Shown piece by piece: positions 7,415 to 58,952 of a DNA stretch of 64,000 bases (the stretch's first letter is position 1; each line of letters begins with the position of its first letter). Location of the stretch: the NCBI RefSeq assembly GCF_004010195.1, contig NC_057719.1, positions 37,500,704-37,564,703 of the forward strand, given 5' to 3'. The position numbers and the translations under genes were made by a program. Under the pieces are notes generated by a model. It had not been told where the DNA came from. It made no database searches and worked only from the letters and a program-made list of their open reading frames with translations. The DNA comes from Chiloscyllium plagiosum (taxonomy: Eukaryota).

Positions 7415-8560
7415 TTTTTTCATTCAATGCATGTGGGTGTCTCTGACTATGCTGGCATTTATTGCCTATCCCTAGTTGCCCTTGGAAGGTGGTGGTGAGC
7501 TGCCTTCTTGACCTTGAAAGAAATGAACTGAAACCTACATTTCATTCTACAAGATGGAAGACTTAACAGCAATCTAGGTTTGTTCAATATATTGTATCAG
7601 TTGCATGCATGACACTGTGATCTTTTGTGTGATTCTGTGTTTTATGATCCTGCTCCACAGATACCTGATGAAGGAGCAGTGCTCCGAAAGCTGGTACTTC
7701 CAAATAAATCTTTTGGACTATCACCTAGTGTTGTGTGATTTTAAACTTCTTGAACTGCTGAAGTCCATTTGCTGTAAGTAAACCCACAATGCCTTTAGGG
7801 AGGGAGTTCCAGGATTTCGACCCAGTGACAGTGAAGGAATGCTGATATATTTCCAAATCAGGATTGTGAGTGGCTTGAGAAAGGAACTAGCTGGTGGTTT
7901 TGTTCCCACGTATTTGCTGCCCTTGTTTCTCTAGATAGTCGTGGTGATGTGTTTGGTAGGTGCTGTCCGAGGAGCCTTGGTGAATTTCTGCAGTGCATGT
8001 TGTAGATAATGCACACTGCCACTGATGAGCATCAGTGATGAAGGCAGTGAACGTTTGTTGATGTGGTGCCAATCAAGTTGGCTATTTGTCCTGGATGGTG
8101 TTCAGCTTCTTGAGTGTTGATGGAACTACACTCATCCAGACAATTGGGGAGTTTTCCATCACGCTCTTGACTTTTGCCTTGTACTTGGCAGACAGGCTTT
8201 GGGGAGTCAGGAAGCAAGTTACTCACTGCAATATTCCAAATCAATGACCTGCTCTTGTGGCTACAATATTTATATGGCAGTCCAGTGCTGTTTCTGGTCA
8301 ATGCTAAATTCCAAGGATGTTGATAGTGGGTGTTTCACTGCTGGTGATATCATTGAATGACAAGGGTCATGTCTAGTTCTCTCTTGACATTGTGCAGCAC
8401 AAATGATACTTGTCACTTGTCAGCCCAAGCGTGGATATTGTAACTGAGATGTCACAAATGATGCTGAACATTGTGCAATCGGCAGGGAAAATCCCAACTT
8501 CTGACGTCATGAAGGAGGGGAGGTCATTGATGAAGCAGCTGAAAATTGTTGGGTCAAAGC
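7415..8560 (-). mobile_element. L2/CR1-group LINE 3' fragment (RT to tail), interrupted by a PLE piece
   Basis: Minus translation PTIFSCFINDLPSFMTSEVGIFPADCTMF (decayed FADD motif); tail shared with 22750-23095, 45440-45680 and the SINE at 62360. Confidence 0.82.
7512..7745 (+). mobile_element. Penelope-like element terminus (family B) with hammerhead-like core
   Basis: Similar to 42885-43280 and 55735-55866; CTGATGA-A-GGAGC-AGT-GCTCC-GAAA-GCTG at 7665-7693; flanked by CTTCTTGA at 7504-7511 and 7746-7753. Confidence 0.8.
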
Positions 8561-26725: not shown

Positions 26726-26998
26726 TGAGTTATGGAAGTTTTCTGACGATACTCCATTTTTAAAAAAATTATTAATGAAAAAAATTGAAAAGGATATCAA
26801 ATAGGACACTTATTTCCTCTCAGTTTTATGGTTTTCTCAGACATATTTTCCCCATACTGCTATAACATGGAACTCACGCTTGATATTTTAGGGTGAAATG
26901 AGATTTCAACATTTTTCTTCTTGTGCTCTGATCTCTCAGGAATATATTTCCCCATTGAGATATTTCTTCAAACGATCAATGTCATCCTGGTCATTGTT

Positions 26999-27143
26999 AA
27001 AAATCACACAGCACCAGGTTATAGTCCAACAGGTTTAATTGGAAGCACACTAGCTTTTGGAGCGTCGCTGATGGACTATAACCTGGTGATGTGTGATTTT
27101 TAACTTTGTACACCCCAGTCCAACACCAGCTTCTCCAAATCAT
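26999..27143. mobile_element. Fold-back PLE terminus insertion (family B)
   Basis: GTTAAAAATCACAC..CCAGGTTATAGTCCA inverted against TGGACTATAACCTGG..GTGTGATTTTTAAC; 14-bp direct repeat TCCTGGTCATTGTT at 26985-26998 and 27144-27157. Confidence 0.88.
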
Positions 27144-27290
27144 TCCTGGTCATTGTTTTGCTTTTTGTTTTACTTTGGCAATTAGAAGTAGAGTTCTGAA
27201 GCATCAACATGAGTGAAACAAAGTGGGAGTAGAATTTCTGTGGCTGACCACTCTGTCTGCTGTAGTCAGTCTGATGGAAGACTGTCATAA

Positions 27291-27500
27291 GTTGAAACTT
27301 TATTGCTGGAACAGCACAGCAGGTCAGGCAGCATCCAGGGAACAGGAGATTCGACGTTTCGGGCACAGGCCCTTCTTCAGGAAGGGCCTGTGCCCGAAAC
27401 GTCGAATCTCCTGTTCCCTGGATGCTGCCTGACCTGCTGTGCTGTTCCAGCAATAAAGTTTCAACTTTGATCTCCAGCATCTGCAGACCTCACTTTCTCC
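27291..27500. mobile_element. Fold-back PLE terminus insertion (family A), perfect hairpin
   Basis: Perfect inverted arms 27289-27375 / 27381-27467; 16-bp direct repeat TGGAAGACTGTCATAA at 27275-27290 and 27501-27516. Confidence 0.92.
27348..27383 (-). ncRNA. Minimal type I hammerhead ribozyme motif, apparently intact (GUC site)
   Basis: Minus strand UUC-CUGAAGA-A-GGGC-CUGU-GCCC-GAAA-CGUC-GAA: core, stem II, palindromic ACGU stem III, stem I UUC:GAA. Confidence 0.75.
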
Positions 27501-29509
27501 TGGAAGACTGTCATAAACCCTGCCTACAGAAACAGCACAATAGCAATCAGGAGATCGATTGAAACTTTACAGAAAATTCTCTCTAATCTTTTCGGAAGTG
27601 TATGAATTTACAGGACCAAACAGATTTTGGAGCTCCAAAATATGAACCTTTGATACTTAGTCATTCGCTGCTACAATAAGGACTGCTCCCTTTGTCTTTC
27701 ACACCATTTTGAACCATTTGGTTCTTGCACATGTGTTTGCTGCATAACCTACTGACACATGTTGTAGATAAGACCTTGGATGCACCACAGAGCTGTGCAA
27801 TTAGATCTTCATTCAGTGCACTGAACTGTGACAAGCTGGCTGCTTCTCTTTATGAGCCAAAAAGCAACGTCAGCCAGAGGCTGAGTAATGAAGCTAAGAG
27901 TCCTGTGTAGACATAGGAGGAGTAAACCCCTGTACACGATCTGGTAGAAGGAAGCATTACTTGGGTGCGGAGTTCCAAAGTGAAATCCTGAAGAATTGAA
28001 ATGGCATGAATTAGTCCAACAGCAAGCATGATGATGTAACGAGGCTGGAGTTTGCCATTGCCAACCTGCTTGGAAGAAGGGTGAAGGAGGCCAGTGTCCA
28101 TGGAGCATGCAGGGAGGTTGTGAGCTGCTGCCACCAGGAATTTGTGGCATTTAGTTTCTGGTGGAGAGTCAGAAGCTGCAAAGAAATGAGGCACTAATAC
28201 TTGGAAATAAAGTGACTGCTGTATATGAGTAAGACCCTGAAACCCCCGATTAAACCTTAAGGGGAATATCAGAAATTTTTTACATGATTCTGGAATTCTG
28301 ATATTGCCATTTTTGTTATATTTTCCCACATTTCTTTCCGTTGCCCATGTTGGTCATTGAAAATTCCACCCAAAGTCTTTAAATCATTCTGGTCTCCTAT
28401 TGGTCTATGCACATGTTGTCATTGTTCTTGGGTTAATATTCCTTCTCCAGGGAGTTTTGTTGCTAAGATGAGTGTTGTTGCCATGGTAGCTATTGTTGCT
28501 GATCCATTGGTGAAGAAAGTAGGTCTCTGGGGCTAGTGGTCATCCTGTGCTCTGTAAAGGTAGTGAGATCACTTCCACTCCTGACACCATATTCCAAGTG
28601 CCATGTTTGATAGTCACCATAGGCTGTTCTCAAAGGCACTGGGTCAAGATCCTGGGATAGCCTCCCTAAGGACATTGTGGGAAAATGGGATGAGATTAAT
28701 TTATGATATCTAGTTGGCATGGATGAATTGGATCGAAGGGTCTGTTTCCATGCTGTATAATTTCTTGCAGCAGTTCAAGGCGGCAGCTCACCACCACCTT
28801 CTCAATGGCAACCAGGGATGGGCGATTAGTGCTGGCAACCCAACGATGCCCACACCCCACAAGTGAATAAATAACAAACTTATAGCAAAGGTGAAGTTCA
28901 TATGATTATGACAAGCCAGCAAATACATGAGGTGGAATTGTCTTGCATCAAACACAGCTTTCTGATGCAGCAAAGTGGCCATTGGCTACACTATGTGAGT
29001 GTTATCTACATATTGACTGTTGGCAGTTATCCAATCAAATAGTGGTTCCAGCTGAGCCTGATCGTGTGCTTGCTCACTGGTTACACATGCACTTCCAGCA
29101 GATCACCAATGACGAGCTGGAAATCTGGCTTATTTTCTTTTCATGAAAGTTAAAGCTCCCTGTAGTTAATCTACTATTGTTTCAGGTGTAATTAATGAAC
29201 TAGAAACTTAACGAGAAAATTTTCACTGCCTGTGTGATTCAGGCACTCAAAACATTTTCAATTATCTCAAAAATTCCTTTAGAAAACGTATTTTCCCTTA
29301 TCCAAGTGTTACTGAAATCAATTACTACCATACATGTAAAAACATGGAAGAATTTATATTTTAATCTGACGCCTTTCACAACATTATTCAGGATTTAATC
29401 ATTGCTGTGAGCAGGAAACCTATTAGCAACTTTGGACATAGCATACCTCGATAAAAGTATTTCCGCTCCTCAGGAAAAATACTCCTTACCTCAGAAAAGA
29501 TGTTATTGC

Positions 29510-29985: not shown

Positions 29986-30296
29986 ATGATCAAATTACCT
30001 GACTCATTGGTGTTAGGGAAGGTGTAATGTAGGTGATTTCAAGAAAAGGAATTTACTCTTCCACTTTTGTCTCCACACGAACAGGGGTTCAGATTGAAGG
30101 GTCACCTGAAAGATAGCAATTTTTTATTACGCTGGAGTTTCACCCTAATGCCTCTGGCTTATGGTTGCAGCCCAGAATCTTAATGTGAAAGTACTATGCA
30201 GAACCAAGAGAGTGAAAAAGTTTCAGGGGTCTCCACCAAGGTGAAGAATCTGGCTGTGGATTATCCGGTCAGTTTAACTTGATCCATTTAAAGTCA

Positions 30297-30500
30297 AAAT
30301 GTGTGGTGCTGGAAAAGCACAGCCAGTCAGGCATCCGAGGAGGAGGAGAGTTAACGTTTCGAGCAGAAGCTCTGATGAAGAGCTTAAGTGCGAAATACCA
30401 ACTCTCCGGCTCCTCGGATGCTGCCTGACCTGCTGTGCTTTTCCAGCACCACACATTTTGACTCTGATCTCCAGCATCTGCAGTCCTCACTTTCTCCTAA
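30297..30500. mobile_element. Fold-back PLE terminus insertion (family A), older
   Basis: Imperfect inverted arms; degenerate CTGATGA..GAAA at ~30372; 18-bp direct repeat TTGATCCATTTAAAGTCA at 30279-30296 and 30501-30518. Confidence 0.88.
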
Positions 30501-30660
30501 TTGATCCATTTAAAGTCAGGCAACTTAGCAGTAATGGCAATACCATTTATCAAGATAAATTAAACCACCAACAGGGTCACAAATTTCTCCAAAATTACAA
30601 CTTTACTTCCCTGAAATAGACCACAATGCTGGAGATGGCATGAAGAAAAATCTAAAATGG

Positions 30661-48780: not shown

Positions 48781-48827
48781 TCGCTTCTCTCTCAGGTTTA
48801 ACCAAGTGAATCTACCCTGTTCTCAGT

Positions 48828-49035
48828 AAAGGAGTGTGGTGCTGGAAAAGCACAGCAGGTCGGGTAGCATCCGAGGAGCAGGAGAATTGATGTTTCAGGC
48901 ATCAGTTTCCTGATGAAGGGCTTATGCCCAAAACGTTGATTCTCCTGCTCTTCAGATGCTGCCTGACCTGCTGTGCTTTTCCAGCACCACTCTTCTGACT
49001 CTGCTCTCCAGCATCTGCAATCTTCTCTTTCTCCT
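48828..49035. mobile_element. Fold-back PLE terminus insertion (family A), decayed hammerhead
   Basis: Inverted arms around CTGATGAAGGGCTTATGCCCAAAACGTTGA (from 48910); direct repeat TGTTCTCAGT at 48818-48827 and 49036-49045. Confidence 0.85.
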
Positions 49036-50676
49036 TGTTCTCAGTGAATAATGACATTACAACTTATATTCCTTATTGTCTTTATGGCTTTGGACAGTAC
49101 AAGCTCTCTGGTTACCATGTCAGTATATAAAACAAATGGAATAAGTTTTAGTTGGGAGTTGCAATTTAAACACACAGATCTGAGAAGGCACTAGCATCCT
49201 ACAGGAGTGTTATTTTTATTATTATCTTCATAATATAAAAATTACAAATTATTCACAGCTCAACATCATTCTAATTTCAATTATTGTTAATGCAAACATG
49301 ATAAATATTCTCAAATCAATTAATACAATGACATCTCAGATTAGCCACTTAATCTCAAACACACACTGTAATTCACCCTGAAGTAAATCCTGTAGTGAAA
49401 CTCAATAAAACAGTGAAAGGATTTTTTGTAGCAAGGAACCATAAATGTGATAGGCCTGTGGAACACTCCATTGAAAGTTTGGTTTAGTTATATTTAGTTA
49501 TATTTTTATAATGGACAAGGCAGGTATATTTGCTGTGCCTCATTTAAGGCCTAAGGAAGTTGTTCGAAACCGGACTGTTCAAAAGCATTTCTCTAAGAAA
49601 CCACATGGAGGATCCAGAGTCTGAAGAATATAGTATTGACATTGGCAGGACTTAAGTAGCCCTGGTAGGTTACCATGACTGCAGCCAAATTCTTGGTGCA
49701 ACTAGGGAAACAAGAGATAGATATTCCCTGTTGGACAGAGAAACTGCAAAGGAACTTCAAAATCTTTCTCATAGCAATGGATTTGAAAATTGTTCAGAAT
49801 TTAAAAAAGGAACTATTTTTCAAATGCATACAGACATTGATGCAAATCAATACTGACTAAAAGTAAACTTTTAAAAAATGCTTATTCCTCCAATAGTATC
49901 AATGTACTCCTCATGGAACCTCTGCTATTTTCCTGACTGGCATTAATATCTTAATGTTTTGTGTATAGTGTAATTCAATCTGTGATATGAATCTTGATTT
50001 TAACTCAGCCCATTATTTATCAGGCAGGAAAGGCTTGACAGAGGAGTTAAAATTTGGAATTTATTTCTCTCAGCTACAACCCATATGTTCCTGTCCACCA
50101 TATTTAAAATGGTGGTGAATAAATGGCAACAATGAGGCTCCTGGTACAAGCAACTAAGGCCCTATTTAGCTGTCAAAAGTCAGGTCTAATGATGTTACAT
50201 GATCTAATCCTAAATACTGACCTTAACCTTTTCAGATCAGCAAGGCCTCCATGTGCCCAGACCCAGCTCCTCTGGACAGCTATACTCTCAGTCAGAAGTG
50301 GCATCTTTCAGATGAGATCGTCTTGCTGGTTAGCCTTTCATGAGATGTGGGCATCACTGGTGTGACCAGGATTTGTTACCCATCTCTAATTACCCTTGAA
50401 CTGAGTGGTTTGCTAAGCCATTTCAGAGTACAGTTGGATCTGGAGCCACATGAAGGCCAGAACAGGTAAGGACATCGATTCCTTTCCCTAAAAAAGGACA
50501 ACAATGAACCAGATAGGCTTTTACAACAATTGATGATCGTTATTAGTCTCCATTACTGAGACTAGGCTTTATATTTATTAACTAACTTAAATTATGCCAA
50601 TTGTCTTGGACACACATCCCTAAAGTATTAGCCTGGGTATTCGCTTTACTAAGAATCAGAATCCCTACAGTGTGGA

Positions 50677-56394: not shown

Positions 56395-56860
56395 AGAGTG
56401 CTTGTGGTGGTGCGTGGAATGTAGGGTGGGGTGCTGGTGGATAGAAACGAAGTTGGTCATTCAGACTAACTGATCAGATTGTGAGAATACCAGAACAATG
56501 GTGCATCTCCTACCAGACGTAAAAGGACAGACACTGGGATGGGGAACAAGGACATGATCACATGCAAAAAGAAAAGGAAGAAATGGTTCAGAGTTTGAAG
56601 GTGTTGAACTCAATGTTATGTTCAGAAGATTGTAAAGTGCCTAGTCTGAAGAGGAGATGTTGTTCCTCCAGTTTGCGCTGTGTCTTACTGGAACACCACA
56701 GCATACCAAGTACAGATATGTGGGCATGCGTGCAGGGCACGATGTTCAAATGACCAGCTACGGAAAGGATGGGGTTATGCTTGTGCACAGACTGGAGATG
56801 TTCTGCAAAGCGGTCACCCAGTCTGCGTTTGGTTTCTCCAGTGTAGAGTCGACCACTTGG
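56395..56860 (-). mobile_element. Penelope-like element GIY-YIG endonuclease C-terminus and 3' region
   Basis: ORF ..VAGHLN..HISVLGML..QRKLEEQHLLFRLGTLQSSEHNIEFN; upstream GETKRRLGDRFAEHL remnant. Confidence 0.85.
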
Positions 56861-58952
56861 CTTATCTTGACTGTAGTTGATGACATTCTGTTACACTGTA
56901 TTACGTGCCAGGCTTAAATCTTTGGAATTGTCAAGACAGAGAGAGCCTAAGGCCCACAGTGGAGAGCATGTCTATTAAAACTCAAAAGAAAGGAGAACTA
57001 GCGGTAGATCAGGCATTAACAACTAAATAAAAGGTATAACTTGGATCTCAGCTGAAAACATTAGAAGAAATAAAGGAGAGATCTGGGAGAGAATGAGTTA
57101 AAAGTAGATTGAGGACTACAATAAATTCATTTTCAATAGGAGGGTATTATGGGGAGAGGGGTATCAAGAATAGCAGAGTTACAGCATAAAAAGGAAGAAA
57201 GGTTCAAAGAACATTTGTTGTATTAAAAATGACGACTTGCGAGTAACATTTGATCAGTGAATGAGAGAGCCTTTGAATTTTCCCATCTGATCTTAAAAAA
57301 ACTAGGAAATACATAAGCATTATTTTTCTTCTGAAAATAGGCAATTTTTCTACTTCTGAACCATTAAAACTAAAGAATGGCATAGCTGAAAAATGCAGCA
57401 TTGCTTTGATCATATTATATTAGCTTCTCAGGTGAATAATATTATGAGACCCTTGCAAATGCCTCTTTATAGGGTAGATGTAAAGCAGTACCATTCTTCC
57501 TGGGTTTGGGGGAGTTACAATCTAGATGCCAAAATTTAGGACAGCAATTATCACATCCAGTTAAGAATTCAAGAGATTTTGTTTTACCAGAGACAGTGGT
57601 TAGACCATCAGGTTGCTACCACATGGAGTAGTTGGGATAAATAGTACAAATGCCTTTAAGGGGAAACAAGATAAGTACAAGGGAGAAACAGTCGAGGATT
57701 TGTAGATAATGTTAACTGAAGTAGAATGTGATGAAGCTGGTGTGGTGCAAAAATATTATCACAGGTACATTGGGTGGACCATTTCCTGGAAAATAAAATT
57801 CTATGAGCTGAAATTTATGGGTCACCCTAGTTCCATCGCTGCCTCTCCAACAGCCCTCCTCTCACTTCATCTGAATCTTTGGGAGCCCGGCCCATGATCC
57901 TATTGGTGGCCTTGTTGATATTTAATGCTGAGAGCAGCGTATGGGGTTGGAAATGGGACTTCATTCCCTCGGAAGGAGATCTCATCTCCAAGAGCTGCCA
58001 ACCAATGGCATGCCAGCTTCTGTAGTCCCAAAAGTGGAACAAGAGCAGTGGGCACTACCACCCCAACCAGAAGATGTAACATTATACAGTACTGGAGGAA
58101 ACGTGGCAAGCAGCAATGGTGCAGTTCGAGTTGAATGATTTTCTCATAGTTACTTACTGCTGTAGAGCAAGGAATGATATATATAAAATGAAACATTTGG
58201 GTTCAGATATCATTGGTTAATGATGTCTTCTGAATCCCTTGATGTCTTACTTTATTGTAGCAGTTGGCAGAAAGTCACTTGGAAAGGATAAAACATGAAG
58301 CTTTCTAAAATGTAGACGCAAATTCCCCTTATCCAGAGCTTCCTCAGCAGTAAAACTGCCCTGTTGCTTCAATTGAGCACTAAATAGATTTTTAGACAAT
58401 GTTCTGTGGATAGAAAGGTTAGCACACAAGTCTGTGTCAGCCTGAGAATAAGATGCATTTTCATTGCCAAATGTATGCATTTTTCTCGGAGGAGAAATGA
58501 GTACAAGTATTATGCAGAAGGTCAGAAGGAACCACCTCCATCAGTCAGAACACACTTGTGCATTGAGTGTGTCCACAAAAATATGTGGGGAGTTAAGATT
58601 TCCAAAGACTTCCTTTTGTTCATTGTATTATGCCAAAAATAAGAAGAGCACCAAGAAAAATTACCTCTACACTTAAGACAAAGTTCATTCCTATTTCGTG
58701 AATGGTTCATATTTACATGAGTAACTAACACTGTGGCTAGCCAAGCTGACACTCAATAGATTTCCTCCATAAATCACAAAATAGTCAATTGTTGGCATTG
58801 AAATAAAATACCAAAGCATCCACTTTAGTTGTTAAGGCTGGATGGAAGATATTTCATGGTTAAGACTGCGTCGTTCATCTCATTCACTGGGAAAGTACAC
58901 CTTAGAAATTTGACAGTTGGTTAAAACAATTCTCATTTGGTGTATCAATATT

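Follow-up and report, generated by a model that had tools for sequence, protein, structure and literature searches.

A recent hairpin insertion of head-to-head pLTR pieces from a Penelope-like element in Chiloscyllium plagiosum, likely made by priming on both target strands

Insertions of EN+ Penelope-like elements (PLEs) are on record with an inverted pLTR, a one-sided tail of 30-40 nt, a palindrome at the junction and a target duplication (PMC3846280, PMC8557442, PMC2377424), the 30-40 nt tail being described for PLEs in PMC8557442 and PMC11167929, and the Penelope promoter has been located in the pLTR (PMC2377424). In vitro, both target strands are cut and extended by a PLE protein, predicted to be a dimer, which starts internally at two sites delimiting the tail and can use uncleaved RNA; inverted insertions are not linked to these start sites in that work (PMC11167929). 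Minimal hammerheads are dispersed in their thousands, with close opposed pairs having been remarked upon, and cleavage of the minimal PLE hammerhead is undetectable as a single motif and weak in dimers (PMC4209133). Non-LTR retrozymes, in turn, are described as head-to-tail tandem units that each carry a hammerhead (10.64898/2026.07.22.740005). Here, we describe a hairpin in a 64,000-nt stretch of Chiloscyllium plagiosum DNA (the window). We read it as a single recent insertion of two short, head-to-head pLTR pieces, likely made by nicking and priming on both target strands (probability roughly 0.85), and the identity of the insert as head-to-head pLTR pieces of a Penelope-like retroelement is close to certain.

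The insert proper occupies 27291-27500 (210 nt) and is made up of two opposed pieces of a Penelope-like pLTR and a one-sided tail, with neither an ORF nor sequence from upstream in the element. Element positions are counted from the last tail base (0), which places the predicted ribozyme cut site at -97/-96, CUGAAGA from -124 and the 5′ strand of helix I from -128. The first piece (27291-27383, element sense on the minus strand) is inverted and tail-less and covers -35 to -127, while the second (27381-27465, plus strand) covers -119 to -35, lacks CUGA, and runs into a single-copy tail of 33-35 nt (27466/68-27500, plus strand) that is present on this arm only and is comparable to the tails described in PMC8557442 and PMC11167929. 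Common to both pieces is a 3-nt GAA microhomology (27381-27383) at the head-to-head joint. Together they form inverted-repeat arms of 87 nt each (27289-27375 and 27381-27467), which are 100% complementary around the 5-nt loop TTCAG (27376-27380, the antisense of CUGAA), retain 6 of 6 CpGs, three per arm, and fold with a z-score of -25. The hairpin is flanked on both sides by the 16-mer TGGAAGACTGTCATAA, at 27275-27290 and again at 27501-27516; among 200,000 random 16-mers drawn from the window, 23 have a second copy 200-260 nt downstream. The start of the left arm overlaps the left copy of this duplication by 2 nt, as the AA that ends this copy can equally be read as the beginning of the inverted arm. 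The insert has the layout of an EN+ PLE insertion, with an inverted truncated pLTR, a one-sided tail within 30-40 nt and a duplication.

The turn of the hairpin lies inside a minimal type I hammerhead (27350-27383, minus strand), whose architecture is that described in PMC4209133. The minus strand from 27380 to 27353 reads CUGAAGA-A-GGGC(CUGU)GCCC-GAAA-C-GUC, a complete hammerhead core in which CUGAAGA (27380-27374) is followed by an extra A, a helix II of GGGC/GCCC with a CUGU loop and a G10.1-C11.1 pair, and then GAAA; helix I pairs UUC (27383-27381) with GAA (27352-27350), and the predicted cut falls after 27353. The features of the minimal PLE hammerhead, namely a CUGANGA core, GAAA, NUH, a helix II with G10.1-C11.1 and a palindrome at 15.2-16.2, are all found in this minus-strand interval, whereas helix I, at 3 bp, falls below the 4-5 bp of the minimal PLE motif and the 4 bp of its own family. 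A palindromic ACGU replaces helix III, and the stable helix III of a canonical Rfam-type hammerhead is lacking. The Rfam hammerhead model gave 0 matches at its gathering score and was not among the 11 Rfam matches at E up to 10, and matches to Rfam microRNAs, far under their gathering scores, reflect only the hairpin. The plus-strand piece begins 5 nt inside the core and is without CUGA, and the full core is found on the minus strand only. An earlier, sequence-only reading of this DNA had described the 87-nt exact arms, the TTCAG loop, the 16-nt flanking duplication, the retained CpGs, the turn inside the ribozyme and the complete core restricted to the minus strand, all of which hold, while the tail was absent from it. 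Its wording of an "intact hammerhead" is apt for the core letters, but not for a motif with no helix III, a 3-bp helix I and no Rfam match.

Longer copies elsewhere in the genome assembly connect the insert to a parent family. The inverted arm is identical at 93 of 93 nt to the pLTR that lies 3′ of the RT/GIY-YIG ORF in L187, and a 30-mer of the window lies 495-497 nt past an endonuclease tag in 11 of 30 loci and 306 nt before an ORF tag in 4 of 30. In L172, a 611-aa stop-free frame matches RVT_1 (E 1.1e-8; 35.5 bits against a cut-off of 29.6) and continues in frame into a GIY-YIG match of 20.9 bits, just under the cut-off of 22.6 that a piece in L181 passes with 22.8 bits. A pair of cysteines within the GIY-YIG motif is visible in the translation of the parent ORF, and a C-x4-C-x2-C linker is present in L172, L181 and others. 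A CX2-5CxxC linker before the endonuclease is described as marking Neptune/Nematis and as absent from Penelope/Poseidon, and the two GIY-YIG cysteines as a trait of EN+ PLEs (PMC8557442). Judged from these translations, the parent family appears to be a young EN+ Penelope-like element with a Neptune/Nematis-type linker; the Poseidon clade was considered for it and dropped on the linker motif. Its first in-frame Met lies past the tail. A gap-free full-length element or ORF was not found among the genome loci examined (L181 and L182 contain gaps), and an endonuclease piece in L011 gave no Pfam match in the frame given. The long copy L187 (C1:59662500-59670800) itself lacks a tail: its sense end lies at -35, the second start point, and it carries a piece of inverted ORF upstream as well as a 649-aa stop-free frame. 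In L121, L140, L141, L143 and L181, an Ala/Thr-rich stretch and a Pro-rich tandem repeat precede the RT, with assembly gaps located there, and these low-complexity stretches recall the low-complexity inserts of rotifer PLEs. In the window, a decayed GIY-YIG piece of another Penelope-like family lies at 56588-56890 on the minus strand (Pfam E 0.04).

The site is empty in other sequenced material. A single contig runs directly from 27274 to 27501 in each of the runs X1 and X6 (both from organism A, in separate studies) and X10 (from organism C), carrying the 16-mer once and lacking the insert, while in X5 two contigs stop at the site and their leftover letters fit the empty form, from which an empty site is inferred there. 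The flanks diverge from the reference assembly at 8 of 400 bases on the right and 0 of 160 on the left in X1, and at 9 of 325 and 4 of 157, respectively, in X10, so the sequenced runs represent other haplotypes or species than the reference assembly. As a control, contigs of the same runs enter an older hairpin 150 nt to the left (26996-27143) from its flanks. Because the contigs of other runs carry a single 16-mer without the insert, a recent insertion with a true target duplication is supported, as the sequence-only reading had anticipated for an insertion it called very recent; the single copy of the 16-mer at the empty site is seen in three of the four runs. Could the hairpin instead be an assembly artefact? 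The filled allele is not among the contig rows shown from the four DNA runs, although these rows are a minority and contigs drop rare variants; the assembly is gapped, and palindromes are hard to assemble. However, duplication, tail and microhomology joint all conform to the family pattern, which is not something an assembler would produce, the flank of the insert is single-copy in the genome assembly, and the runs differ at 8 or more of 400 flank bases, as other haplotypes or species would, which makes an artefact barely credible. A second, empty copy of the flank was not found in the genome assembly. The older hairpin, at 26985-27157 in full, belongs to a second hammerhead-bearing family, with 37-nt arms, a tail of approximately 35-39 nt and a 14-nt duplication (TCCTGGTCATTGTT), and is common to the other runs, whereas the 27291-27500 insert is not. 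An inverted arm, a turn at the ribozyme and a tail recur, along with duplications of 18 and 10 nt, in two decayed hairpins from related families at 30279-30518 and 48818-49045, the former with its full core on the tailed arm, and further single hammerhead cores of at least two families lie on the plus strand at 7665, 12284, 43198 and 55747.

The family to which the insert belongs is large: a 32-nt family tag has 10,509 exact matches in the genome assembly, and the exact turn of the window copy has 189. We took a census of 90 loci, covering 97 of the first 100 tag matches listed, with one copy per locus and ungapped extension. The tag spans the start of the tail, leaving tail-less copies such as L187 outside the sample, and ungapped scoring misplaces a few ends (e.g., L013). 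An adjacent inverted arm, and hence a hairpin, is present in 55 of the 90 sampled copies. Its outer end lies at -33 to -36 in 40 of the 55, and its inner end at -115 to -130 in 45, past -140 in another 7 and no more than 5 nt from the cut site in a single hairpin. The sense pieces begin at -115 to -130 in 53 of the 90 copies and in 4 near the cut site. Of the 55 hairpins, 45 are flanked by duplications of 13-19 nt, lengths that are perhaps slightly high, as one mismatch was permitted from 14 nt. The arms are perfect in 30 of the 52 comparable hairpins, with 17 of these reaching at least 80 nt. A full core is carried by both arms in 19 of the 55 hairpins, by the tailed arm only in 6, by the tail-less arm only in 23 and by neither in 7. 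Perfect arms, a turn within the ribozyme and a core on one strand are thus common family traits. Among 30 loci with the exact turn of the window copy (3 of which are also within the census), 27 hold the tag, and in these the core is on the tailed arm in 15, arranged as in the window in 11 and further trimmed in 1, with arm starts that differ from copy to copy.

These identical turns bear on whether the hairpin unit is mobile in its own right, in the manner of a MITE or a retrozyme. The 189 matches to one exact turn could be taken for the progeny of such a unit, as could L008, L018 and L084, which have one joint and the same end points. Yet this turn is found in either polarity with respect to the tail, and the arm starts vary, a combination that one master copy could not give; in the family at large the joints vary widely, the ends are not inverted repeats, given the one-sided tail, and the duplications range over 13-19 nt; a self-mobile unit is very improbable. 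MITEs and fold-back DNA transposons carry inverted repeats at both termini and a duplication of fixed length, and were rejected as a class for the insert on its one-sided tail, the 13-19 nt duplications and the variable joints. The three copies L008, L018 and L084 are longer hairpins, with a joint at -273/-200, an arm start at -24 and no duplication found, and may descend from a single rearranged source copy.

A different kind of significance had been proposed for the locus from the sequence, namely a switch specific to this site, by which a putative host transcript would pass between long dsRNA and an active ribozyme. The minus-strand core is complete, a transcript would give 85-87 bp of perfect dsRNA, and the two folds are, as had been stated, mutually exclusive. 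The balance between them is nevertheless one-sided, since forcing helices I and II costs 47.6 kcal/mol relative to the hairpin (secondary structure only, with tertiary contacts and dimers left out), and on a minus-strand transcript the antisense arm precedes the ribozyme arm and would be made first. Helix III is absent and helix I shortened, no second sense copy lies in cis, the strand that carries the full core varies among identical joints, and the insert, being absent from the other samples examined, is not conserved. The locus is not special within its family either, where arms are perfect in 30 of 52 hairpins and the turn falls at the 5′ part of the ribozyme in 45 of 55. A locus-specific switch is highly improbable on these grounds. 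If the insert is transcribed, the RNA is predicted to form a hairpin of 85-87 bp in which the ribozyme is locked away, so that the folding model favors dsRNA and a balanced ribozyme/dsRNA switch is not supported. No Pfam match at E up to 0.01 was obtained from 300 stop-free frames of the window (150 of 163 on the minus strand and 150 of 166 on the plus strand; at least 45 aa and less than 25% repeat-masked), a scan blind to short exons, non-Pfam exons and long introns. The locus is an ordinary one among thousands, and most likely inert debris.

The mechanism that we propose for such insertions begins with the enzyme of the element, which would nick both target strands approximately 15 nt apart, with copying primed on each. 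Reverse transcription would be primed by one nick at the end of the tail and by the other at a point lying 34 nt inwards. The two cDNAs would then pass the uncleaved hammerhead and stop at a point approximately 128 nt from the end of the tail, which is most probably the 5′ end of the RNA, and the two cDNA ends would be trimmed and joined via the 3-nt microhomology, with gap filling yielding the duplication. We lean, if only slightly, towards this two-primer, run-off mechanism, and give even odds to the broader proposal that the hairpins are the in vivo footprint of a Penelope-specific double priming, in which an enzyme dimer would prime both target strands at two fixed sites on the RNA, separated by 34 nt, and make two copies of the same uncleaved RNA front end, running off at its 5′ end. 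When the depth of the two arms is compared, the tail-less one extends further by 4 nt or more in 27 of 46 hairpins, as it does in the window copy, and the tailed one does so in 7 of 46. Two primed cDNAs are the simplest account because this extra depth precludes copying of the tail-less arm from a tailed cDNA, while the tail could not come from a tail-less one. The arms also share a source, as a rare core variant is present on both arms at 19 of 21 places, set against 1,271 strand matches of the common form; a single RNA, a pair of RNAs from the same source copy and later gene conversion between the arms would all fit. Target bases match the arm start at A in 31 and at G in 26 of 45 registered hairpins (of 69), as against 19 and 14 of 45 on the tail side, a weak hint of primer-template pairing at the arm start.

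With the element identity unchanged, the inverted arm could also have arisen by snap-back self-priming of a single cDNA, or from an antisense transcript. The joint in the window is exactly what would be produced by a 3′ end in GAA folding onto TTC five bases back, rare variants common to both arms fit self-priming as well, and self-priming on an antisense template is the explanation favored in PMC3846280 for palindromic PLE junctions. However, fold-back of a tailed cDNA cannot add extra sequence to the tail-less arm, as found in the 27 of 46 hairpins above, and fold-back of a tail-less cDNA cannot give the tail. Moreover, an identical joint is found in both polarities (15 versus 11), and the fixed arm start agrees with the second RT start site of PMC11167929, so that self-priming is, in our judgement, unlikely. 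At the joints of L050, L051, L039 and L036, short templated inserts from the antisense strand of the ribozyme are found, two of them after a run of T.

The proposed mechanism has the cDNAs stop near -128. Genome-wide, 11,444 matches reach -127, 4,718 reach -136 and 4,289 reach -145, a drop of 59% at the 5′ edge of the ribozyme compared to 9% over the following 9 nt. The motif TCATTCC lies at the stop point, with TTAT approximately 30 nt upstream, in three related families. We take TCATTCC to be an initiator-like motif, and its presence with the upstream TTAT suggests, at the level of sequence motifs, that an RNA starts here. The integrated copies, which run through the cut site, suggest derivation from uncleaved RNA. 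Alternatively, the stop near -128 might be a structural or protein block, or a favored repair point, at the hammerhead helices, and not an RNA 5′ end. Such a block or repair would fit the position of the stop on the 5′ strand of helix I, the reuse of short self-complementary words in the joints and the lack of a cap-G excess at the base preceding the stop point (C 16, A 12, G 7, T 2; 37 ends), as well as the D. virilis intron described as ending at hammerhead helix I (PMC4209133). But RT reaches the ribozyme from its 3′ side (approximately -93), where few ends are found, and no AG is present at -130/-129 to serve as a splice acceptor. The initiator-like TCATTCC and its TTAT recur in three related families, and 41% of matches extend past the stop point, as expected of RNAs with an upstream copy. 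We regard a block or repair point as possible but doubtful, and retain the RNA 5′ end as the preferred reading of the stop.

In essence, the locus is a further case of the published inverted-pLTR layout of PLEs, and what may be new is the account by double priming and run-off. No paper giving double priming as the cause of inverted PLE copies was found in a literature search that took in few subscription journals, and this is weak evidence of absence. As a class, the hairpins offer a testable link between the in vitro result (two start sites, extension of both strands, ribozyme cleavage dispensable) and the long-noted, unexplained inverted layout of Penelope. If true, double priming would account in one step for the tail and for inverted and solo pLTRs alike, and would explain why whole elements spread by tandem copies only, and the thousands of young perfect hairpins would constitute a natural library of reaction products, some of which are absent from other samples. 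So many young hairpins with perfect arms may, in addition, supply dsRNA pathways or make DNA less stable.

Several known systems invite comparison. In twin priming of L1, both target strands prime, the products are joined head to head through microhomology, and one duplication flanks the whole. The window insert resembles it in its both-strand priming, as proposed here, in its head-to-head microhomology joint and in the single duplication that flanks the unit; in contrast, the two L1 pieces derive from different parts of the RNA, whereas here the same 85-95 nt is present twice, hence the perfect hairpin. Non-LTR retrozymes, as tandem units each with a hammerhead, were rejected for the window locus, which is head to head with a single complete core. 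Tandem units of the window family do exist at L087 and L049, but not at the window locus: L087:2880-3800, L049 and L031 hold retrozyme-like, head-to-tail tandems (224 nt) of pLTR, tail and ORF start, the unit in L087 being bordered by a short direct repeat. The minimal metazoan PLE hammerheads of PMC4209133 share with the window motif the core letters, the extra base between positions 9 and 10.1, the G10.1-C11.1 pair and the palindrome at helix III; the window motif differs from them in its 4-bp helix II, its 3-bp helix I and its pairing with its own antisense arm. The in vitro system of PAc, a Poseidon element of Anolis carolinensis (PMC11167929), is similar in having two RT starts that bound the tail, in cutting and extending both strands and in dispensing with hammerhead cleavage, properties that match the window family, whose arms begin at two fixed points and read through the cut site. 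It differs in belonging to Penelope/Poseidon, with an ORF that begins in the ribozyme, while the window family has a CX4CxxC linker and a first Met past the tail. The closest likeness in layout is to the EN+ PLE insertions described in PMC3846280, PMC8557442 and PMC2377424, which have an inverted, 5′-truncated pLTR beside a direct one, a tail at one end, a palindrome at the joint, a duplication and a parent ORF of RT with a C-terminal GIY-YIG. Unlike these, the window unit is 210 nt long with no ORF between its repeats, hairpins make up 55 of 90 sampled copies, and the duplications measure 13-19 nt, compared to 8-10 nt in the rotifer PLE examples.
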